The notes under the pieces were generated by a model that saw only the letters and a list, made by a program, of their open reading frames with translations, did no database searches and was not told where the DNA came from. Positions 18,107-40,995 of a stretch of 64,000 bases of DNA are shown one piece after another (position 1 is the first letter of the stretch; each line of letters starts with the position of its first letter). The stretch is from a virus, in the IMG/VR virus record IMGVR_UViG_3300025466_000012, positions 32,001 through 96,000 of that record, one strand, 5' to 3'. The translations under genes were made by a program, and so were the position numbers.

Positions 18107-18139
18107 ATTAGTACAGTGACAAAACAAGGAGCGCAACAC

Positions 18140-19159
18140 ATGACCAAAGTAAAAATTATAAACGGAATATACCGTAATCAACCTGTAAGAGATGTAGCAT
18201 TTACCCTGGTAAAAGGCCTGCAAATGGGCGCCAGAGGCAGTTTTGTCACTGTGGACAGCGAGGGTTATTTTGGACCCGAGTTTGACGTGGTGCGTATCAA
18301 AGTGGATGGCATCGAAGATGTGGAATTTGTGGGCGGTGATGCAGTTACAGCTCAACCGTCTGTGAAGGCAGTTGCCGTACAAGAAACTGACGAAGCAGTC
18401 ATGAGCCGTATCGGCGAACGATTTGATATCTTGGACCAAATGACCAAGGCTGCTATCGCCGGCGATGTGCGAGCCATGATTGTGGTTGGCCCTCCTGGTG
18501 TGGGCAAGAGTTATGGTGTGGAAAAACAGCTGGAACAGTCGGGCCTGTTTGACAAGTTGGCTGGACGCAGGATCAAGTACGAAATCATCAAGGGTGCCAT
18601 GACACCGATTGGTTTGTACTGTACCTTGTACAAGAATTCTGATCCATGCAACGTGTTGGTGTTTGACGACTGCGACTCAGTATTCCAAGATGACTTGAGC
18701 CTGAACATTCTCAAAGCAGCTCTGGATTCAGGCAAGAAACGCAGGATCTACTGGAATTCGGACAGTTCCATGTTAACCCGTGAAGGTGTTCCCAACAATT
18801 TTGACTTCAAAGGTGCCTGTATCTTTATCACCAACCTGCAGTTCCAGAATTTGAAAAGCAAGAAACTGCAAGATCACCTGGAAGCCCTGCAAAGTCGTTG
18901 TCACTTCTTGGACTTGACCCTGAACACACAACGCGACAAGTTCTTGCGTATCAAACAGATCTTCCGCAAAGGTGACCTGTTCCAGGACTACGATTTTAGC
19001 CCAGAACAGGGCGAAGAGATCCTGGACTACATGGATGCCAACAAGGATCGTTTGCGAGAGCTCAGTTTACGCATGGCACTCAAGATTGCAGATTTGACCA
19101 AGATCTCGGCAACCAACTGGAAAGCACTAGCAGTCAGCACATGTATGAAAAATAGTTGA
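18140..19159 (+). CDS. AAA+ type P-loop ATPase
   Basis: Walker A GPPGVGKS and Walker B VLVFDDCD; AAGGAG RBS. Confidence 0.8.
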   Translation: MTKVKIINGIYRNQPVRDVAFTLVKGLQMGARGSFVTVDSEGYFGPEFDVVRIKVDGIEDVEFVGGDAVTAQPSVKAVAVQETDEAVMSRIGERFDILDQMTKAAIAGDVRAMIVVGPPGVGKSYGVEKQLEQSGLFDKLAGRRIKYEIIKGAMTPIGLYCTLYKNSDPCNVLVFDDCDSVFQDDLSLNILKAALDSGKKRRIYWNSDSSMLTREGVPNNFDFKGACIFITNLQFQNLKSKKLQDHLEALQSRCHFLDLTLNTQRDKFLRIKQIFRKGDLFQDYDFSPEQGEEILDYMDANKDRLRELSLRMALKIADLTKISATNWKALAVSTCMKNS

Positions 19160-19217: not shown

Positions 19218-19243
19218 ACAGGCCTTTCGGGGCCTGTTTTTTT
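19218..19243 (+). terminator. Rho-independent terminator with a TTCG loop
   Basis: ACAGGCCT-TTCG-GGGCCTGT followed by a T tract. Confidence 0.85.
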
Positions 19244-19277
19244 GATTTTGTCACTATAAGTGTGTTATACTAAATCT

Positions 19278-20294
19278 ATGCGAACAGCCAAAATAATAGT
19301 GCGTGACGAAGTCAATATCAAAATTGAAGGACTTGAGTTAGACGCAAGACGGGCCTTGGTCCGAGCTTTTGAATATGATGTGCCTGGTGCCAGATACTTG
19401 CCAGCAGTTAGACTGGGCCGTTGGAACGGCAAGACCAGCTACTTCCAGTTAGGAGGTAGTAGCTATGTGAATCTTTTACCCGAGATCGTGCCCATACTCG
19501 AGCAGTTCAATTACGATATCGAGCTGGATGACCAACGCGAATACTCAACCACTTTTGAATTTGCGCAAGTACACGAAAACAGTTTTGCACACATAGCTTG
19601 GCCCAAGGGACATCCTTCAGAAGGTGAACCCATGCAGTTACGGGATTATCAGGTCAGCATAATCAACGATTTTTTGATCAATCCACAATGCATACAGGAG
19701 ATAGCTACCGGTGCCGGCAAGACCGTGATAACTGCTGCACTATCAAACGCAGTGGCACCACTAGGGCGTACCATAGTTATTGTGCCCAACAAGAGCTTGG
19801 TCACACAGACCGAACGAGACTACATCAACATGCAACAGGATGTGGGTGTGTACTTTGGCGACAGAAAAGAATGGGGTCGGCAACACACTATCTGTACCTG
19901 GCAAAGCCTCAATGTGTTGTTAAAGAATACCAAGTCAGGTGTGGGTGATTGCACCATTGGCGAGTTCCTGGAAGATGTGGTGTGTGTGATTGTAGACGAA
20001 TGTTTTGCTGGAGATAGTAAAGTGCTGACTCCGGATGGATATAGGCAGATCAAAGATATTAAATCGGGCGATAAAGTTATTAACTATTCTGAGACTACCA
20101 AAGAGTTTAAAGTAGATACTGTAGTTAAACAGCATAAGAACCTGACAAATTCTGCTAGCGAAACTATGTTTGAATTAGAATTTGATAATGGCAACCAAAT
20201 ACAAGTCACAGGTAATCATAAGTTTCTTACTGATCGAGGCTGGGTCCGGGCAGATGCACTGACAGAAGAGCACGAAATTATTAATAAAACATAA
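19278..20294 (+). CDS. uvsW: UvsW-like SF2 helicase, N-terminal part fused to the N-half of a split intein
   Basis: Motifs LRDYQ, IATGAGKT and IVPNKSLV, then IVDE followed by Hint block A CFAGDSKV and block B TGNHKF, then a stop codon. Confidence 0.92.
   Translation: MRTAKIIVRDEVNIKIEGLELDARRALVRAFEYDVPGARYLPAVRLGRWNGKTSYFQLGGSSYVNLLPEIVPILEQFNYDIELDDQREYSTTFEFAQVHENSFAHIAWPKGHPSEGEPMQLRDYQVSIINDFLINPQCIQEIATGAGKTVITAALSNAVAPLGRTIVIVPNKSLVTQTERDYINMQQDVGVYFGDRKEWGRQHTICTWQSLNVLLKNTKSGVGDCTIGEFLEDVVCVIVDECFAGDSKVLTPDGYRQIKDIKSGDKVINYSETTKEFKVDTVVKQHKNLTNSASETMFELEFDNGNQIQVTGNHKFLTDRGWVRADALTEEHEIINKT
20001..20291 (+). mobile_element. Split intein, N-fragment (97 aa)
   Basis: Starts at Cys1; IKDIKSGDKV and TxxH motifs; ends at a stop codon. 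Confidence 0.9.
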
Positions 20295-20321
20295 ATACAT
20301 ATAACTAAAGCAGAGGTATTT

Positions 20322-21233
20322 ATGAAGAAAACAGCAGATCAGATGATGAAAATTATTAATAACAGATTAACAGAATATAGCCAACACACCAGAGTAGTTG
20401 AGTGGTCGGGTAAGAATATTATGTTATCAACCGGTAAAATATTAACAAATTCCGACAGGGCAAGATTTATAAAACGAATCATGAATACAAAAACTGATCT
20501 ATGGTGTCGTTGCATGGACAGATTGATAAGCGGTGAGATAACAGAACCTGAAATTAAATCCAAGTTATCTGCAATCGGTGGTACCGCAGTCCAGAAAAAA
20601 CACGGTAATACTATCAAAAAAAATCTTAATACCGGCATTCCCTGGAATGCCGGAACTAGAGGACAGAACATAGGTACCCGCGGAGCCCGAACACAAATAG
20701 TTAAAGATAAAATTAGTGTAAAAAATTCTGGGAGCAACAATGGAATGTACGGGGTTAGGTTGTCAGACTTGGACAAAAAAACAAAGTCTGAAATAATGAA
20801 ACAAAAAATATTGTCGGGTGAATTTACCCCAAACAGTAATAACAGAAATACACATTGGGAATCAACATTTGCTGGTAAATCATACCGGTCTAGTTGGGAG
20901 GCATTATATCAATATTTTAATAAAGATGCCGAATACGAAAAACTAAGAATCAAATATAATATTAACAATACAACAAAAATTTATATTGTTGATTTCGTAG
21001 ATTATATCAACCGGCAAGTTATAGAAGTTAAACCTCGAGAGCTATGTACTGGAGAAAAATTTCAAGCCAAACTAACTGCATTGACCGCCTGGGCAGAATT
21101 AAACAAATATGCGTTGATAATAGCAGACAAAGAATGGTTTCAATTACAAAATAACAATATAGATTATACAAAATTTGATGATAGTACTGCACGAAAAATA
21201 AAAGAACTATATGAAACTAATAAAAAGAACTGA
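20322..21233 (+). mobile_element. Free-standing putative homing endonuclease (NUMOD-like segments plus PD-(D/E)XK/TnsA-like domain)
   Basis: KNSGSNNGMYG; YRSSWE...YIVDF...IEVKP; AT-rich; lies between the two intein halves. Confidence 0.75.
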
Positions 21234-21315
21234 AATCCTCAAACCACTCGAAGTGTTTAATTTGCACATAGAAAACGATCACAATTACATTGTGGATGGT
21301 GCAGTGGTATCAAAT
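21211..21315 (+). mobile_element. Split intein, C-fragment (35 aa)
   Basis: Block F VFNLHIENDHNY; terminal Ser-Asn; +1 residue is Cys. Confidence 0.9.
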
Positions 21316-22053
21316 TGCCACATGGCCAAGGCCGATGCACTCAAAACACTCCTGACCGGCGTAATGAGTCGTATTCCCATCCGTTGGGGATTAACAGGAA
21401 CTATTCCCAAAGAACCATTCGAGTCGCAGGCCTTGAAGTGTAGTCTAGGACCAGTGATCAATCAGCTTACCGCCAGCGAATTGCAAGACCGTGGTGTGCT
21501 GGCCCAGTGTCATGTGAACATAGTACAACTGGTGGACCATGCCGAGTTTGCCAACTATCAAAGCGAACTGAAATTTTTGCTAGAAGAATCTGGACGTCTA
21601 GATGCCATGGCCAGTTTGATACGTCAGGTAAATGAAACCGGCAATACCCTGGTTCTGGTGGACCGGATCGCAGCCGGACAAGGACTTTTAGAACGTTTGG
21701 GCAACGGGGCTGTCATGGTATCGGGTGCGACCAAGGCCCAGGCCCGACAGGACGAATACGACGAAGTGGCCGATGCCACCGGCAAGATTATCGTGGCCAC
21801 ATACGGTGTTGCAGCCGTAGGTATCAACATACCCAGGATCTTTAATCTGGTCTTGGTCGAGCCTGGCAAGAGCTTTGTGCGGGTGATCCAGAGCATTGGT
21901 CGTGGCATCAGGAAAGCCGAAGACAAGGATCATGTTGAAATCTGGGACATAACCAGCACCTGCAAGTTTGCCAAGCGACACTTGACCAAACGCAAACAGT
22001 TTTATAAAGAGGCCAAGTACAATTTCACACAGGAGAAATTGGAGTGGAAATAA
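21211..22053 (+). CDS. uvsW: Split intein C-half (35 aa) fused to the C-terminal part of the UvsW-like helicase
   Basis: VFNLHIENDHNYIVDGAVVSN followed by CHMAK; helicase motifs WGLTGT, YGVAAVGINIP and QSIGRGIR. Confidence 0.92.
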   Translation: MKLIKRTEILKPLEVFNLHIENDHNYIVDGAVVSNCHMAKADALKTLLTGVMSRIPIRWGLTGTIPKEPFESQALKCSLGPVINQLTASELQDRGVLAQCHVNIVQLVDHAEFANYQSELKFLLEESGRLDAMASLIRQVNETGNTLVLVDRIAAGQGLLERLGNGAVMVSGATKAQARQDEYDEVADATGKIIVATYGVAAVGINIPRIFNLVLVEPGKSFVRVIQSIGRGIRKAEDKDHVEIWDITSTCKFAKRHLTKRKQFYKEAKYNFTQEKLEWK

Positions 22054-31385: not shown

Positions 31386-32220
31386 ACTGACTCTATCGCG
31401 CAAGCCGCAACTGAATGAAATCTTTGGCTTGGGCAAAAGCAAACAAGACAAAATAAATGCCCAGGCGGCCAAGTACGCCGGCAAATTACAAAAAAAAGTC
31501 AGCCAAAATGCAGGAACCACAGCACCATTGCAGACCGATGCCACACGCATGGCACAGGCCTCGGCCAAATTCCACGCCAATCCGGCTGCCCAACAATGGG
31601 TCAATAATGCTGTGGCCAAGTGGCCATCCGCAGCTGCAACTATAAAAGCCCAGGCACAACCCACAACAACCAACGCACCTGTGGCTTCGGCTTCCACTGC
31701 TGGCTCGGCTCCGGTCAGTATAGGTGGACAAACGCTGGATCCCAACAATCCGGCCCACGCACAGATACTGAGTCAGATGAAAAAACAGGGTATTTCAGAA
31801 GCCGCTGCCGGAGACAATTATGCCACACTGTTCCGCACCTGGGCCAATCAACAGCTCAGAACTGTCACACTGGATGCGCTAGAGCAGAATGCTGAGGTCA
31901 AAAACAAGCTAGAGTCGCTGATAACCCAGATCGAAGCCACGCAGAACAATTTGCCAGCCCAGACCAAATTGGTGGCTGAGTTTTTGAGTACGGCCGTGAT
32001 CGCCAACCATGTGGTTCAGGACCAGGCTCGTCAAGGACAATACAGTCCACAGACCCGTGCTGATGCCAACACCGAGTCTTCTATCAAACTGGATCCCATA
32101 CAACAACTCAATCTCAAACGACAGGCACGAGCCGCCGGAATTACCCAGGCCAGAACGACCGGCAATACCGACTTGGACGATTTCCTTCGACAAAACATGG
32201 GCATACGGATCACAGGATGA
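31372..32220 (+). CDS. Hypothetical Ala/Gln-rich putative internal head protein
   Basis: Starts MQIHEL; QLNE and ISEA sites. Confidence 0.55.
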   Translation: MQIHELTLSRKPQLNEIFGLGKSKQDKINAQAAKYAGKLQKKVSQNAGTTAPLQTDATRMAQASAKFHANPAAQQWVNNAVAKWPSAAATIKAQAQPTTTNAPVASASTAGSAPVSIGGQTLDPNNPAHAQILSQMKKQGISEAAAGDNYATLFRTWANQQLRTVTLDALEQNAEVKNKLESLITQIEATQNNLPAQTKLVAEFLSTAVIANHVVQDQARQGQYSPQTRADANTESSIKLDPIQQLNLKRQARAAGITQARTTGNTDLDDFLRQNMGIRITG

Positions 32221-38226: not shown

Positions 38227-38826
38227 ATGAAAAGCAAGTATGGTTTAATTAAAAAATGTCTTCATTGTAACCAAGATTTTGAAACAAAACCTAGATACTT
38301 AGAGTATTGTTCAACTCCTTGTAAAAATCCAATCAATCGTCCTGGAAACACTGCTTGGAATAAAGGTATTAAACTTACTAACGAACAAAAGTCTAAATTA
38401 AATATCGAAGGTCTTAAAAAAGGACACGGTTGGAATAAAGGTTTACCAAACAAAAGACAGAGTCAAAAATGGAAAGAAAATAATCCTAATGCAGACGGCA
38501 AATTAAATAATCTAAGAACTAAAAAACCTTGTAACGATGCTCTCAAACTTTATCGAGGAAAAGTTCGTTATGCTACATATAGAACTATTAAAGAAATGAA
38601 AGTTAATAATGAGTGGGTTCCTGTGTTTGGCAAATATAAACATAGTTGGCAAATAGATCATATCATTCCTATAGTTCAAGGGTTTGAATTGGGAATAGAT
38701 CCCTATTTACTTGGTAGTAAAAAAAATATACAATTTATTAAAGGTGAAGAAAACAGATCCAAGTGGGATAGTTTTCAAACTAACGATGTAATAGAGTCAA
38801 TAACAGGAGAAACATATGGCTTATAG
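38227..38826 (+). mobile_element. Free-standing HNH homing endonuclease-like gene
   Basis: WQIDHIIP...NIQFI...EN..K; repeated AWNKG (NUMOD-like) segments; AT-rich; upstream CTAAATA. Confidence 0.75.
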
Positions 38827-40222
38827 TGATGCTGTTTTGGATCATTACGAAAATCCAAGAAATGTGGGATCGTTTAAGAAGGGTGACGAGGGTGTTGGAG
38901 TTGGACTTGTGGGGGCACCTAGTTGTGGAGATGTTTTACAGTTAAGTATAAAGGTAAATGATGTTGGAATTATTACAGACGCCCGGTTTAAAACTTACGG
39001 CTGTTTAACTAGTAATGCTCCTGTTAATACTCCAACCTGCATTAAAAAAATAAAAGATTTAAAAATCGGCGACGAGGTGTTGGCCTGGAACGGTGAAAAA
39101 ATTGTTAATCAAAAAATACAAAATATAATTAAACATTCGGTTGATGTTGATGAGTTGTTGATTATTACTTTTAAACGCGAGACGAGTAGAAAAAATACCA
39201 ATCCTGGCACCTTCTCATTAATTTGCACAAAAGAACATATATTTTGGAATGCCGATAATACACCAGTAGAAGCACAACAACTACAAGTAGGTCAAGAGTT
39301 GTATGAAATAACCGAACACGAGTTACGAATTCTTACAAATAATAGACATCGCACAGAACTCAAACAAAAAAATAGCAATAGAATGAAAGAATGGAATCAA
39401 ATTTTTGATCATTCAGTATTACCACAAAATCAATCCGGGTATGTGTGTAAAGATTTAGAAACCAAAAAGAAAAAATCTAGGATTGCTTCTTTAAAAAATT
39501 GGAAAGATTCTGATTATGTCAAAAAATGGCAACAGGGAATGGCACGAAGAGATTGGTCTAAACCTACTAGTATTGAACAAAAATATATTGATTTATTTGA
39601 AGAAAACAATGTAGCAATAAAATGGAGTGCTGGAAAGATATGGATTCAAACTGATGCAGGACCAGCAAGCCCAGATTTTATTGTTCCTGGTAAGAAAAAA
39701 TGCATAGAAGTGTATACAAAGCGTATGCCCAAATTCATGCAAGATAGGTCAGAAGAATCAAATTATGTAGTGAATCGTCGCAAACAGTTGGCCACAGCCG
39801 GCTACGATTCATTATTTTTAGCAATAGAAGATATTGATAAATCATTGTCAGAAGTGCAAAATTTCATTCATAACGGAATGAAAATTGTAGATGTTTCACC
39901 AATTACTCATTTAAATCAGTTACGCGGTTGTGAAAGAGATGGAAAATCAGTTGTGGTATATGATTTAAAATTAGAGGGTGGAGCTCATGTGTTTTTCTCT
40001 AACAGAGTTGGGTCACATAATTGTGGATCGGCTATTGCATCATCCAGTCTTATCACTGAATGGGTCAAAGGGAAAACACTGGACGAAGCAGGAAGCATTA
40101 AGAACAGCCAAATTGCTGAAGAGTTGGCGCTCCCGCCCGTCAAAATACATTGTAGCATATTGGCAGAATCCGCCATTACAGCGGCAATTGACGACTATAA
40201 GAAAAGACATAACCTAACATAG
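38816..40222 (+). CDS. iscU: Fe-S cluster scaffold IscU interrupted by an intein
   Basis: Exteins give HYENPRNVG, GAPSCGD, FKTYG-CGSAIASSS and LPPVKIHC; spliced length 128 aa. Confidence 0.93.
   Translation: MAYSDAVLDHYENPRNVGSFKKGDEGVGVGLVGAPSCGDVLQLSIKVNDVGIITDARFKTYGCLTSNAPVNTPTCIKKIKDLKIGDEVLAWNGEKIVNQKIQNIIKHSVDVDELLIITFKRETSRKNTNPGTFSLICTKEHIFWNADNTPVEAQQLQVGQELYEITEHELRILTNNRHRTELKQKNSNRMKEWNQIFDHSVLPQNQSGYVCKDLETKKKKSRIASLKNWKDSDYVKKWQQGMARRDWSKPTSIEQKYIDLFEENNVAIKWSAGKIWIQTDAGPASPDFIVPGKKKCIEVYTKRMPKFMQDRSEESNYVVNRRKQLATAGYDSLFLAIEDIDKSLSEVQNFIHNGMKIVDVSPITHLNQLRGCERDGKSVVVYDLKLEGGAHVFFSNRVGSHNCGSAIASSSLITEWVKGKTLDEAGSIKNSQIAEELALPPVKIHCSILAESAITAAIDDYKKRHNLT
39002..40021 (+). mobile_element. 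Intein (340 aa) with a central endonuclease-like domain
   Basis: Starts CLTSNA; block B CTKEH; VYDLKL; ends SHN; +1 Cys; internal TSIE...PDF...CIEV motifs (Vsr/PD-(D/E)XK-like). Confidence 0.92.
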
Positions 40223-40248
40223 AACAAATAACTTTGCTAAATAAAGTT

Positions 40249-40995
40249 ATGAATAGGTGTAAATGTGGTTGTGGAATATCACTTAGAAAAGATAATAGAA
40301 CTGGATACCAAAAAGGTCATAAACCATGCCCTATTTGCGGTACACTGATAAAGGGCTCAAGTATAGAGTGCTGTTCAAAATCTTGCTCTGCTAAACTACA
40401 CTGGCAAAGAAATCCAGATATGGCAGAATCTAGAACCTGGAATGCTGAACGATATGCTACTAGAGAACAGAATAGAGATACTTGGGTTAAAAACTTGTCA
40501 AATGCTTGCAAAGGTAGAACTCCTTGGAATAAAGATACGCAAGGATTACAAGTAGCGTGGAATAAAGGGTTACCTGGTAATTTTAAGGGAAAGAGGCACA
40601 GTTCTGATTATATTGAAAAAGTTAAAAAGACCAATCTTGAAAGATATGGTGTAGAAAATGTTGGACATTTTGCTAAAACTTCTCCTCGTAGTAAAAAAGA
40701 AAAATCTCTAGAAACAATTTTAATTGATTATGAGATCAATGTTAAAATTGGAAAATACAAACCAGATTATGTGAATGAATCAACTAAACACATAATAGAA
40801 ATTTATGGTGATTACTGGCATTGTAATCCAAAATTATTCAATAAAGATTTTTATCATCCTCAGCTGAAAAAGACAGCCGAAGAAAAATGGTTATTAGATT
40901 TAACTAGACAACAGTATTTTGAATCTTTAGGATACACAGTAGAAATAATATGGGAAAGCGAATTAGATGATTACCGTAACCGACACGGCCAGTAA
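40249..40995 (+). mobile_element. Free-standing Vsr-like homing endonuclease
   Basis: YKPDY, IIEIYGDYWH and GYTVEIIWE motifs; N-terminal CKCGCG and WNKG repeats. Confidence 0.8.

Follow-up and report, generated by a model that had tools for sequence, protein, structure and literature searches.

How can a phage make an intact helicase from a uvsW gene that lies in two pieces, with a nuclease gene between them? This question is raised by positions 19278–22053 of the window, our term for the whole 64,000-nucleotide stretch analyzed (positions 32,001 to 96,000 of IMG/VR virus record IMGVR_UViG_3300025466_000012, one strand), which comes from an uncultured T4-like phage of freshwater (genome ~200 kb). 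An earlier reading made from the letters alone (the sequence-only reading) proposed that a naturally split intein interrupts this gene within the DECH motif of the helicase. Our analysis agrees. Judging from sequence, the fractured uvsW gene is very probably rebuilt by split-intein trans-splicing, with a mobile, TnsA-like homing endonuclease gene (HEG) between the intein halves.

Three co-oriented open reading frames (ORFs) make up the locus. ORF1 (19260/19278–20294) ends ..VCVIVDE followed by CFAGDSKV.., as seen both in the ORF listing and by direct reading; the ATG at 19278 is its likely true start, because the first Met of relatives falls at the equivalent position. ORF2 (20322–21233) encodes an intact 303-aa protein, begins 27 nt after the ORF1 stop in the same frame, with a single TAA between the two, and has its own start signals, a GAGG Shine-Dalgarno (SD) sequence and an ATG. 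ORF3 (21211–22053) is read in another frame, and its first 23 nt coincide with the end of ORF2. The coordinates and intein-half lengths given by the sequence-only reading all agree with the ORF listing and the raw sequence. The features are as follows, where IntN and IntC denote the N- and C-terminal intein fragments.

19278–20000, + strand: N-extein, 241 aa, comprising a putative UvsW N-terminal domain and RecA-like domain 1 with Walker A ATGAGKT, and ending with the DE of motif II (T4 UvsW match in the PDB, Pfam, PHROGs).
20001–20294, + strand: IntN, a 97-aa class-1 intein N-fragment (20001–20291) with Cys1 and block B TGNH, plus the TAA at 20292–20294 (TIGR01445, PDB inteins).
20290–20324, + strand: putative hairpin (9-bp stem, 17-nt loop) controlling the nuclease gene (folding and conservation).
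20322–21233, + strand: putative free-standing homing endonuclease, 303 aa (AlphaFold2 (AF2) model, TnsA structural match, PHROGs).
21211–21315, + strand: IntC, a 35-aa C-fragment with block F ..NLHIENDHNY.., a penultimate Ser and a terminal Asn (TIGR01443).
21316–22053, + strand: C-extein, the Cys-His of motif II (DE/CH) followed by RecA-like domain 2, 245 aa plus stop (T4 UvsW 2OCA, Helicase_C, phrog_9690).

The host gene is a helicase of the UvsW type. The best PDB match of the N-extein is T4 UvsW (1RIF/2OCA, E 1.7e-6, UvsW residues 24–180), and that of the C-extein is again T4 UvsW (2OCA residues 234–470, E 4.5e-16). Because the C-extein starts at UvsW residue 234, the break falls in motif II. 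Pfam assigns ResIII/DEAD to the N-extein and Helicase_C to the C-extein, while the UvsW N-terminal domain PF21241 scores 18.0 bits against a cut-off of 25.3. In PHROGs, the N-half matches the DNA helicase family phrog_16259 (2.4e-59) and the C-half matches phrog_9690 (5.7e-52), families that consist of precisely these two half-genes. The features of a UvsW-type superfamily 2 (SF2) helicase are thus in place: motif I ATGAGKT, motif II DE/CH, Helicase_C, and T4 UvsW as the closest relative. The nearest intact helicases in cultured phages are those of jumbo phages such as Phosso, Atu_ph07, GAP32, and PA5oct (46–50% identity), and their alignments end at or just beyond the extein-intein boundary. 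Among the relatives, which had been proposed as a place to look for intein-free alleles, one was located. This allele, L042, joins ..VIVDE straight to VHMAKADALK and is colinear with both exteins; because it reads DE-VH, the insertion point is fixed between the Glu and the +1 residue. The claim of a uvsW gene split exactly between DE and CH of motif II is borne out by the T4 UvsW matches and by this junction. The sole intein-free allele found (L042:4001–5113) has DEVH, in contrast to the DECH of every one of the 49 alleles with an intein; such a Val in motif II could make the site a poor target for homing or splicing.

The segments flanking the break are intein halves. IntN starts with Cys directly after ..VIVDE and contains ..VTGNHKF.., and the 35 codons of IntC end ..AVVSN (..HNYIVDGAVVSN), followed by CHMAK. 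In NCBIfam, TIGR01445 (intein_Nterm) scores 45.7 bits over ORF1 residues 242–318 (cut-off 24.5), and TIGR01443 (intein_Cterm) scores 22.1 bits over ORF3 residues 14–36 (cut-off 15.6). The Hint-type families of Pfam match below their cut-offs, PT-HINT and Hint excepted. Among PDB sequences, IntN is closest to Spl DnaX (7CFV) and Npu DnaB (4O1R), with E ~2–3e-7, and NrdJ-1 and gp41-1 match more weakly. The fold was examined with a contiguous relative, L055, for which the split halves were supplied as partial alignment rows. The model has a HINT fold, with a predicted local distance difference test score (pLDDT) of 90.3 and a predicted template modeling (TM) score (pTM) of 0.84. Its top PDB matches are all inteins: Ssp DnaB 1MI8 (TM 0.78), 4O1R, NrdJ-1 8UBS, Npu DnaE 4KL5, and gp41-1 6QAZ. 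The UvsW intein family is ≤27% identical to any solved intein.

Conservation follows the residues expected of a splicing intein. The window carries the class-1 set of Cys1, TGNH, the terminal Asn35 of IntC, and Cys+1. Across 49 distinct alleles whose IntN is 46–100% identical to that of the window, Glu-1, Cys1, (T/S)xNH, the block-F HNY, the terminal Asn, and the +1 Cys-His are invariant, while the penultimate intein residue varies (S, A, H, E, Q, K). The +1 residue of the intein-free allele is Val, so the Cys found there in the other alleles appears to be kept for splicing and not for the helicase. The intein (IntN plus IntC) is under purifying selection: among the 60 allele pairs for which dS was usable, the ratio of nonsynonymous to synonymous substitution rates (dN/dS) is at most 0.29, with a median of 0.13. 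These residues suggest that the IntN and IntC fragments would assemble into a single HINT fold and perform canonical class-1 trans-splicing, in which an N-S acyl shift at Cys1 would be followed by transfer to the +1 Cys, then by cyclization of the Asn that ends IntC, and last by an S-N shift. Splicing would join Glu241 to Cys without a scar and so restore the DECH box in a UvsW of 486 aa. As a separate observation, MAFFT placed the IntN tail (..HEIINKT, 20271–20291) and the IntC head (MKLIKRT.., 21211–21231) in the same columns, a resemblance that may be due to chance or may be a trace of cassette insertion.

The gene between the intein halves was proposed to encode a nuclease, and ORF2 does have a predicted TnsA-like fold. 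An AF2 model built from 26 homologues (pLDDT 85.6) contains an N-terminal helical/small-β region and a C-terminal PD-(D/E)xK nuclease domain (aa 156–298); NUMOD3-like repeats can be read by eye at ~aa 100–150. The best structural match of the C-terminal domain is TnsA (1T0F, Z 7.7 over 135 residues, VIA-align), and weaker matches of ORF2 include Vsr (Z 5.1), VRR-NUC, I-Bth0305I (Z 4.6), and Hjc. In the 26 homologues, E193 (SSWE), D224 (IVDF), and E235 are invariant and K237 (EVKP) is near-invariant; the E...D...ExK layout is therefore TnsA-like and not of the Vsr/EDxHD type. PHROGs places ORF2 in phrog_22417 and phrog_15427 ("endonuclease"), with a weak match to phrog_218 (E 2e-4). No match was found among PDB sequences even at E 10, nor in NCBIfam, and tblastn gave no significant second copy in the phage's own genome (next-best E 0.49). 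Homologues adjoin or sit inside the terminase genes of many T4-like phages, and they also occur in Campylobacter phages. An assignment of ORF2 to the Vsr-like/EDxHD nucleases of Dassa 2009 was rejected on the absence of a sequence match to 3R3P or 1CW0, the E-D-ExK motif, and a merely generic fold similarity (Z 4.6–5.1). From its TnsA-like layout and fold, the predicted ORF2 family adds a third kind to the GIY-YIG and Vsr-like endonucleases that fracture genes in Dassa 2009. In the proposed pathway, this HEG would have entered a mini-intein at the position where endonucleases usually reside, breaking the intein. The nuclease probably cuts cassette-less uvsW alleles during co-infection, and repair of the cut allele would copy in IntN-HEG-IntC, or the HEG alone.

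A putative control element precedes the nuclease gene. The stem pairs CATAAATAC (20290–20298), a sequence similar to T4-type late promoters that holds the IntN stop, with its perfect reverse complement GTATTTATG (20316–20324), which comprises the end of the SD spacer and the ORF2 start codon. In 26 loci the 9-mer never varies, although their nuclease proteins are only 39–97% identical to that of the window, and 89.8% of cells are paired, as compared to 27–55% for slid controls. The case for the hairpin is made by conservation and pairing only. Such a hairpin, with its late-promoter-like box, would cover the nuclease start codon and probably limit nuclease translation. By analogy with T4, the box may also act as a late promoter in this phage, in which case late-infection transcripts would begin directly 3′ of CATAAATA.

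A different repeat lies upstream of uvsW. At 19219–19244, between an AAA-type ATPase-like gene (18116–19159) and uvsW, a GC-rich inverted repeat (caggcc..ggcctg) is followed by a T-run and resembles an intrinsic terminator; for this reason, uvsW probably has its own promoter.

The relatives of the locus were surveyed by an IMG/VR scan with an alignment of the N-half, which returned 110 relatives, of which 80 loci were examined. Together with Salmonella phage S16, Proteus phage PM2, and a Lak megaphage, they form a census of 83 loci, sorted by an automatic classifier. A split intein with a nuclease gene, in varying frames, is present at 63 of the 83 loci (60 of the 80 from IMG/VR), and 11 are split without a nuclease gene. 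A contiguous intein of 130–141 aa occurs at five (three distinct), and L042 is the single locus without an intein. The Lak locus was classed as incomplete because tblastn under translation table 11 missed its IntC; on inspection, it has the same layout. The site is thus polymorphic for presence and absence of the element, and several of its states can be read as steps of gain and loss. Three HEG-less split alleles (L064, L073, L051) retain C-terminal remnants of the HEG, and in L017 the IntN TAA directly abuts the IntC ATG. The closest relative, L004, has exteins that are 95–96% identical and an intein that is 100% identical to those of the window, and it carries a nonsense mutation at HEG codon 24 (L004:5045–5953); the window copy is intact. 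At L036:812–1234, and likewise in L037 and L038, a contiguous 141-aa intein has a linker (..INTYNKKSRYY..) that aligns with the HEG 5′ untranslated region of split relatives, with AAA at the position of the stop and ATA at that of the IntC ATG. These inteins are, from their sequences, apparent re-fusions of a split intein after HEG loss.

The trees of the exteins and the intein conflict. Approximately unbiased (AU) tests reject congruence (p = 2e-8, 0.01, and 9e-12, for groups named only after the trees had been inspected), and two well-supported intein subfamilies are scattered across the extein tree. The cassette is also AT-rich, with GC fractions of 0.37 (IntN), 0.34 (HEG), and 0.33 (IntC) between exteins of 0.47 and 0.51. 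Because the trees disagree and the cassette is AT-rich, we conclude that the element is mobile.

Some relatives carry uvsW in three pieces (L070:2054–6327, and also L064, L067, L071, L073–75, and L079–83). In these, a second, atypically split intein lies at Walker A (GAGK/C..), with an IntN of 27–42 aa and an IntC of ~135 aa ending HHN/T. A Vsr-like endonuclease gene lies between its halves, except in L081, which is without it. The extra 1.5-kb insert of such relatives was considered as a contiguous large intein, a reading rejected in favor of a second fracture. A three-piece uvsW would depend on a pair of orthogonal trans-splicing reactions; no Walker-A intein is present in the window. A weak match to the Walker-A intein C-fragment brought up another intein-like stretch (..HPNHRYYGDGIVSHN/S) at L055:94–411, in a gene upstream of uvsW.

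Several of our results weigh against the proposal of trans-splicing around a TnsA-like HEG. The window intein has Ser in place of the penultimate His, and its block F reads ..FNLH.., with Asn in place of Asp. Both the penultimate His and the block-F Asp are common but not universal intein residues; with the Ser-Asn end and the block-F Asn, activity and rate cannot be assumed from the sequence. The structural matches of the predicted nuclease are of modest strength: in addition to the Z of 7.7, Foldseek with the ORF2 model gives nothing at E ≤ 0.001 and only weak agreement on the fold (E > 0.01), and Pfam Tn7_TnsA-like_N scores 20.4 bits, below its cut-off of 26.5. By itself, the hairpin fold (−6.3 kcal/mol, z −1.45) is weak, no compensatory changes occur in the stem among the 26 loci, and TATAAATA, ATAAATAC, and CTAAATA boxes are not enriched within the window.

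Could the split itself be an artefact, such that assembly or sequencing errors created the stop and the shift of frame in a gene that really carries one contiguous intein with its endonuclease domain inside? ORF1 and ORF2 do share a frame one TAA apart, and one low-depth (2.5x) contig has a 1-nt deletion at 20293. The frame of ORF3 differs, though, ORF2 has its own GAGG and ATG, and the split recurs in 63 loci with several frame combinations, the cultured phages S16 and PM2 included. Moreover, the window's stretch is contained in 24 freshwater/lake metagenome runs. Independent contigs, that is, those from runs not flagged as a possible source of the window, keep the split: one (run X12) has 0 differences across 19278–21343, and another (run X19) has 96 substitutions and zero indels across 19283–21986. 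The continuous cis-intein that would have undone the sequence-only reading is in this way refuted for practical purposes, and we give it a negligible probability. Decay of uvsW, with the pieces as pseudogene remnants of a gene inactivated by the insertion, has nothing specific in its favor. UvsW is non-essential in T4, but both pieces are full-length with every helicase motif present, the intein evolves at a dN/dS of ~0.13, and dozens of diverged phages with the same layout keep conserved exteins; decay is very unlikely.

The two remaining alternatives accept a functional locus. The intein fragments might act as a clasp that docks the helicase halves non-covalently, with no peptide bond formed, as in the NrdA of phage Aeh1. 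The missing penultimate His and the block-F Asn would fit such a role, and fragmented enzymes that are not spliced are cited in Dassa 2009 (PMC2677866). A clasp would need none of Cys1, the block-B His, the terminal Asn, or the +1 Cys, all of which are invariant in 49 of 49 alleles, and the Val tolerated at +1 in the intein-free allele leaves splicing as the only explanation of the Cys. The split also falls within motif II, and an insert of 132 residues left unligated there would disrupt the ATPase site. We consider a clasp quite unlikely. The other alternative concerns ORF2, which might not be, or might no longer be, a HEG, but a domesticated nuclease or DNA-binding protein serving the phage, a role compatible with trans-splicing of the helicase. 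Its intact frame, the catalytic residues kept in 26 diverged copies, the invariant 5′ control element, and the homologues next to terminase genes in many T4-like phages could all reflect domestication. Set against this are the presence/absence polymorphism, the internal deletions that leave C-terminal remnants, the nonsense mutant in the closest relative, the AT-rich foreign composition, and trees discordant with the host gene, which together make domestication unlikely. Trans-splicing of the helicase around a mobile HEG remains the best explanation.

Elsewhere in the window, an IscU/NifU_N gene (38816–40222) holds a contiguous Hint intein at ..KTYG/C...SHN/CGSAIASS, whose internal insert is PD-(D/E)xK-like in appearance (..SPDFIV..IEVYTK..). 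This gene is flanked by two nuclease-like ORFs, both free-standing, at 38227–38826 (H-N-H-like) and 40234–40995 (Vsr-like, ..EIYGDYWHCNP..), and the region 38227–40995 is low in GC (0.34–0.38).

The sequence-only reading regarded the pair as probably new. This holds in part: no paper naming UvsW as a host was found, but the pair is not a one-off, and homologues are already present in GenBank, PHROGs, and IMG/VR. UvsW as a split-intein host was not found in the searchable literature, a scope outside which subscription journals and InBase fall, so that absence is not proof. Within the same scope, no description of the DE/CH insertion site, the UvsW intein family, or a TnsA-like homing endonuclease was found. 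The UvsW intein is unmentioned in PMC2988022, PMC7824862, PMC3322345, PMC5259590, PMC7090010, and PMC4760082, and UvsW is absent from the hosts listed in Dassa 2009 (PMC2677866), namely gp41, IMPDH, DnaE, NrdA, NrdJ, ligase, and terminase. A homologous split intein stands unrecognized in the GenBank entry of S16, and further homologues are found in PHROGs 16259 and 9690, PM2, the Lak megaphage, and >100 IMG/VR contigs. The UvsW split intein therefore appears to be a member of a widespread, seemingly undescribed family. We lean, by a little, toward a fuller claim: that the motif-II element is a seemingly undescribed split-intein family whose catalytic set is unusual in lacking the penultimate His and the block-F Asp, paired with maybe the first TnsA-like PD-(D/E)xK HEG family; that a single site keeps the empty, contiguous mini-intein, split-with-HEG, HEG-pseudogene, split-without-HEG, and apparently re-fused states; and that some relatives make the helicase from three pieces by two orthogonal reactions.

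The finding is real, useful, and evolutionarily instructive, and not surprising in principle. The natural phage split inteins gp41-1, NrdJ-1, and IMPDH-1 are, to our knowledge, the fastest known, and they are widely used in protein ligation, labeling, and logic circuits. Each new orthogonal pair enlarges the ligation toolbox, and the UvsW pair could become such a tool: the family offers a short 35-aa IntC, a native +1 Cys, and dozens of natural variants at 46–100% identity, and the homologous pair in the culturable phage S16 is directly testable. The family also provides a dense natural series for the gene-breaking model of split-intein origin and prompts the question whether a split intein can become contiguous again. 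In public phage genomes, the run of "DNA helicase", "hypothetical protein", and "helicase" at the uvsW locus is one gene with a mobile element inside.

The closest counterparts of this locus lie in cultured phages. In S16 (HQ331142), gp114 ends ..MMNDE/CFDGDT.. and then a stop, gp114.1 is the ORF2 homologue, and gp115 reads ..ALAHN/CHLATGK... S16 and PM2 share with the window the DE/CH site, the gene order, an IntN that is 63% (S16) or 59% (PM2) identical, and a homologous nuclease (37–40% identity). Their genes occupy the place of uvsW in T4, with uvsW.1 and uvsY as neighbors, and are annotated only as two helicases and a hypothetical protein. They differ in having exteins only ~24% identical to those of the window, His as the penultimate residue, no CATAAATAC hairpin, and a nuclease ORF that overlaps IntN. 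The Prevotella phage Lak-B4 (L002:2218–5515) has the same fracture (..IIDE/CCHPDT.. and ..CISN/CHHVG..) and a homologous 413-aa nuclease; its fractured helicase comes to light only if TAG is translated as Gln.

Among solved structures, the closest relatives are the Ssp and Npu DnaB and Spl DnaX mini-inteins (1MI8, 4O1R, 7CFV), which share the HINT fold, Cys1, TxxH, and terminal Asn. Those inteins are contiguous (engineered mini-inteins), reside in other hosts, and are ≤27% identical, and the UvsW intein, unlike them, mostly lacks the penultimate His. The predicted nuclease resembles Tn7 TnsA (1T0F/1F1Z) in its restriction-endonuclease-like core with E...D...(E/Q)xK, but it has no detectable sequence similarity to PDB entries, remains below the Pfam TnsA_N cut-off, and does not reside in a transposon. 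With I-Bth0305I (3R3P), it shares a separate N-terminal DNA-binding region but not the His-based Vsr/EDxHD motif. At the nrdA-a/mobE/nrdA-b locus of Aeromonas phage Aeh1, a free-standing HEG likewise splits an enzyme gene, and a hairpin that contains a late promoter is reported to hold back translation of that HEG. Aeh1 NrdA has no intein and assembles non-covalently, whereas the window has complete intein halves with all nucleophiles.

The fractured genes of Dassa 2009 (PMC2677866; gp41-1, gp41-8, NrdJ-1, IMPDH-1, and NrdA-2), which combine split inteins with a free-standing HEG, remain the best parallel. In that set, a hairpin with a TATAAATA box occurs in 15 of 16 fractured loci and was linked to translational repression of the Aeh1 endonuclease. 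The uvsW locus differs in its host, its site (SF2 motif II), an intein ≤ ~25% identical to gp41-1 and NrdJ-1, and a nuclease with a TnsA-like E-D-ExK layout instead of a GIY-YIG or Vsr-like HEG. As in those loci, the host is broken at the endonuclease-insertion site of the intein in the order IntN, HEG, IntC, a hairpin with a TATAAATA-like box precedes the HEG, the 3′ end of the HEG overlaps the downstream start, and HEG-less split variants exist, as for gp41-7. The analogy to gp41, NrdJ, and IMPDH drawn in the sequence-only reading extends to every defining feature: the host gene lies in two co-oriented ORFs colinear with an uninterrupted homologue; the upstream piece ends in IntN (blocks A and B) and the downstream piece starts with IntC (blocks F and G); and between them lies a free-standing predicted endonuclease ORF with its own start signals, a hairpin, and a 23-nt 3′ overlap.

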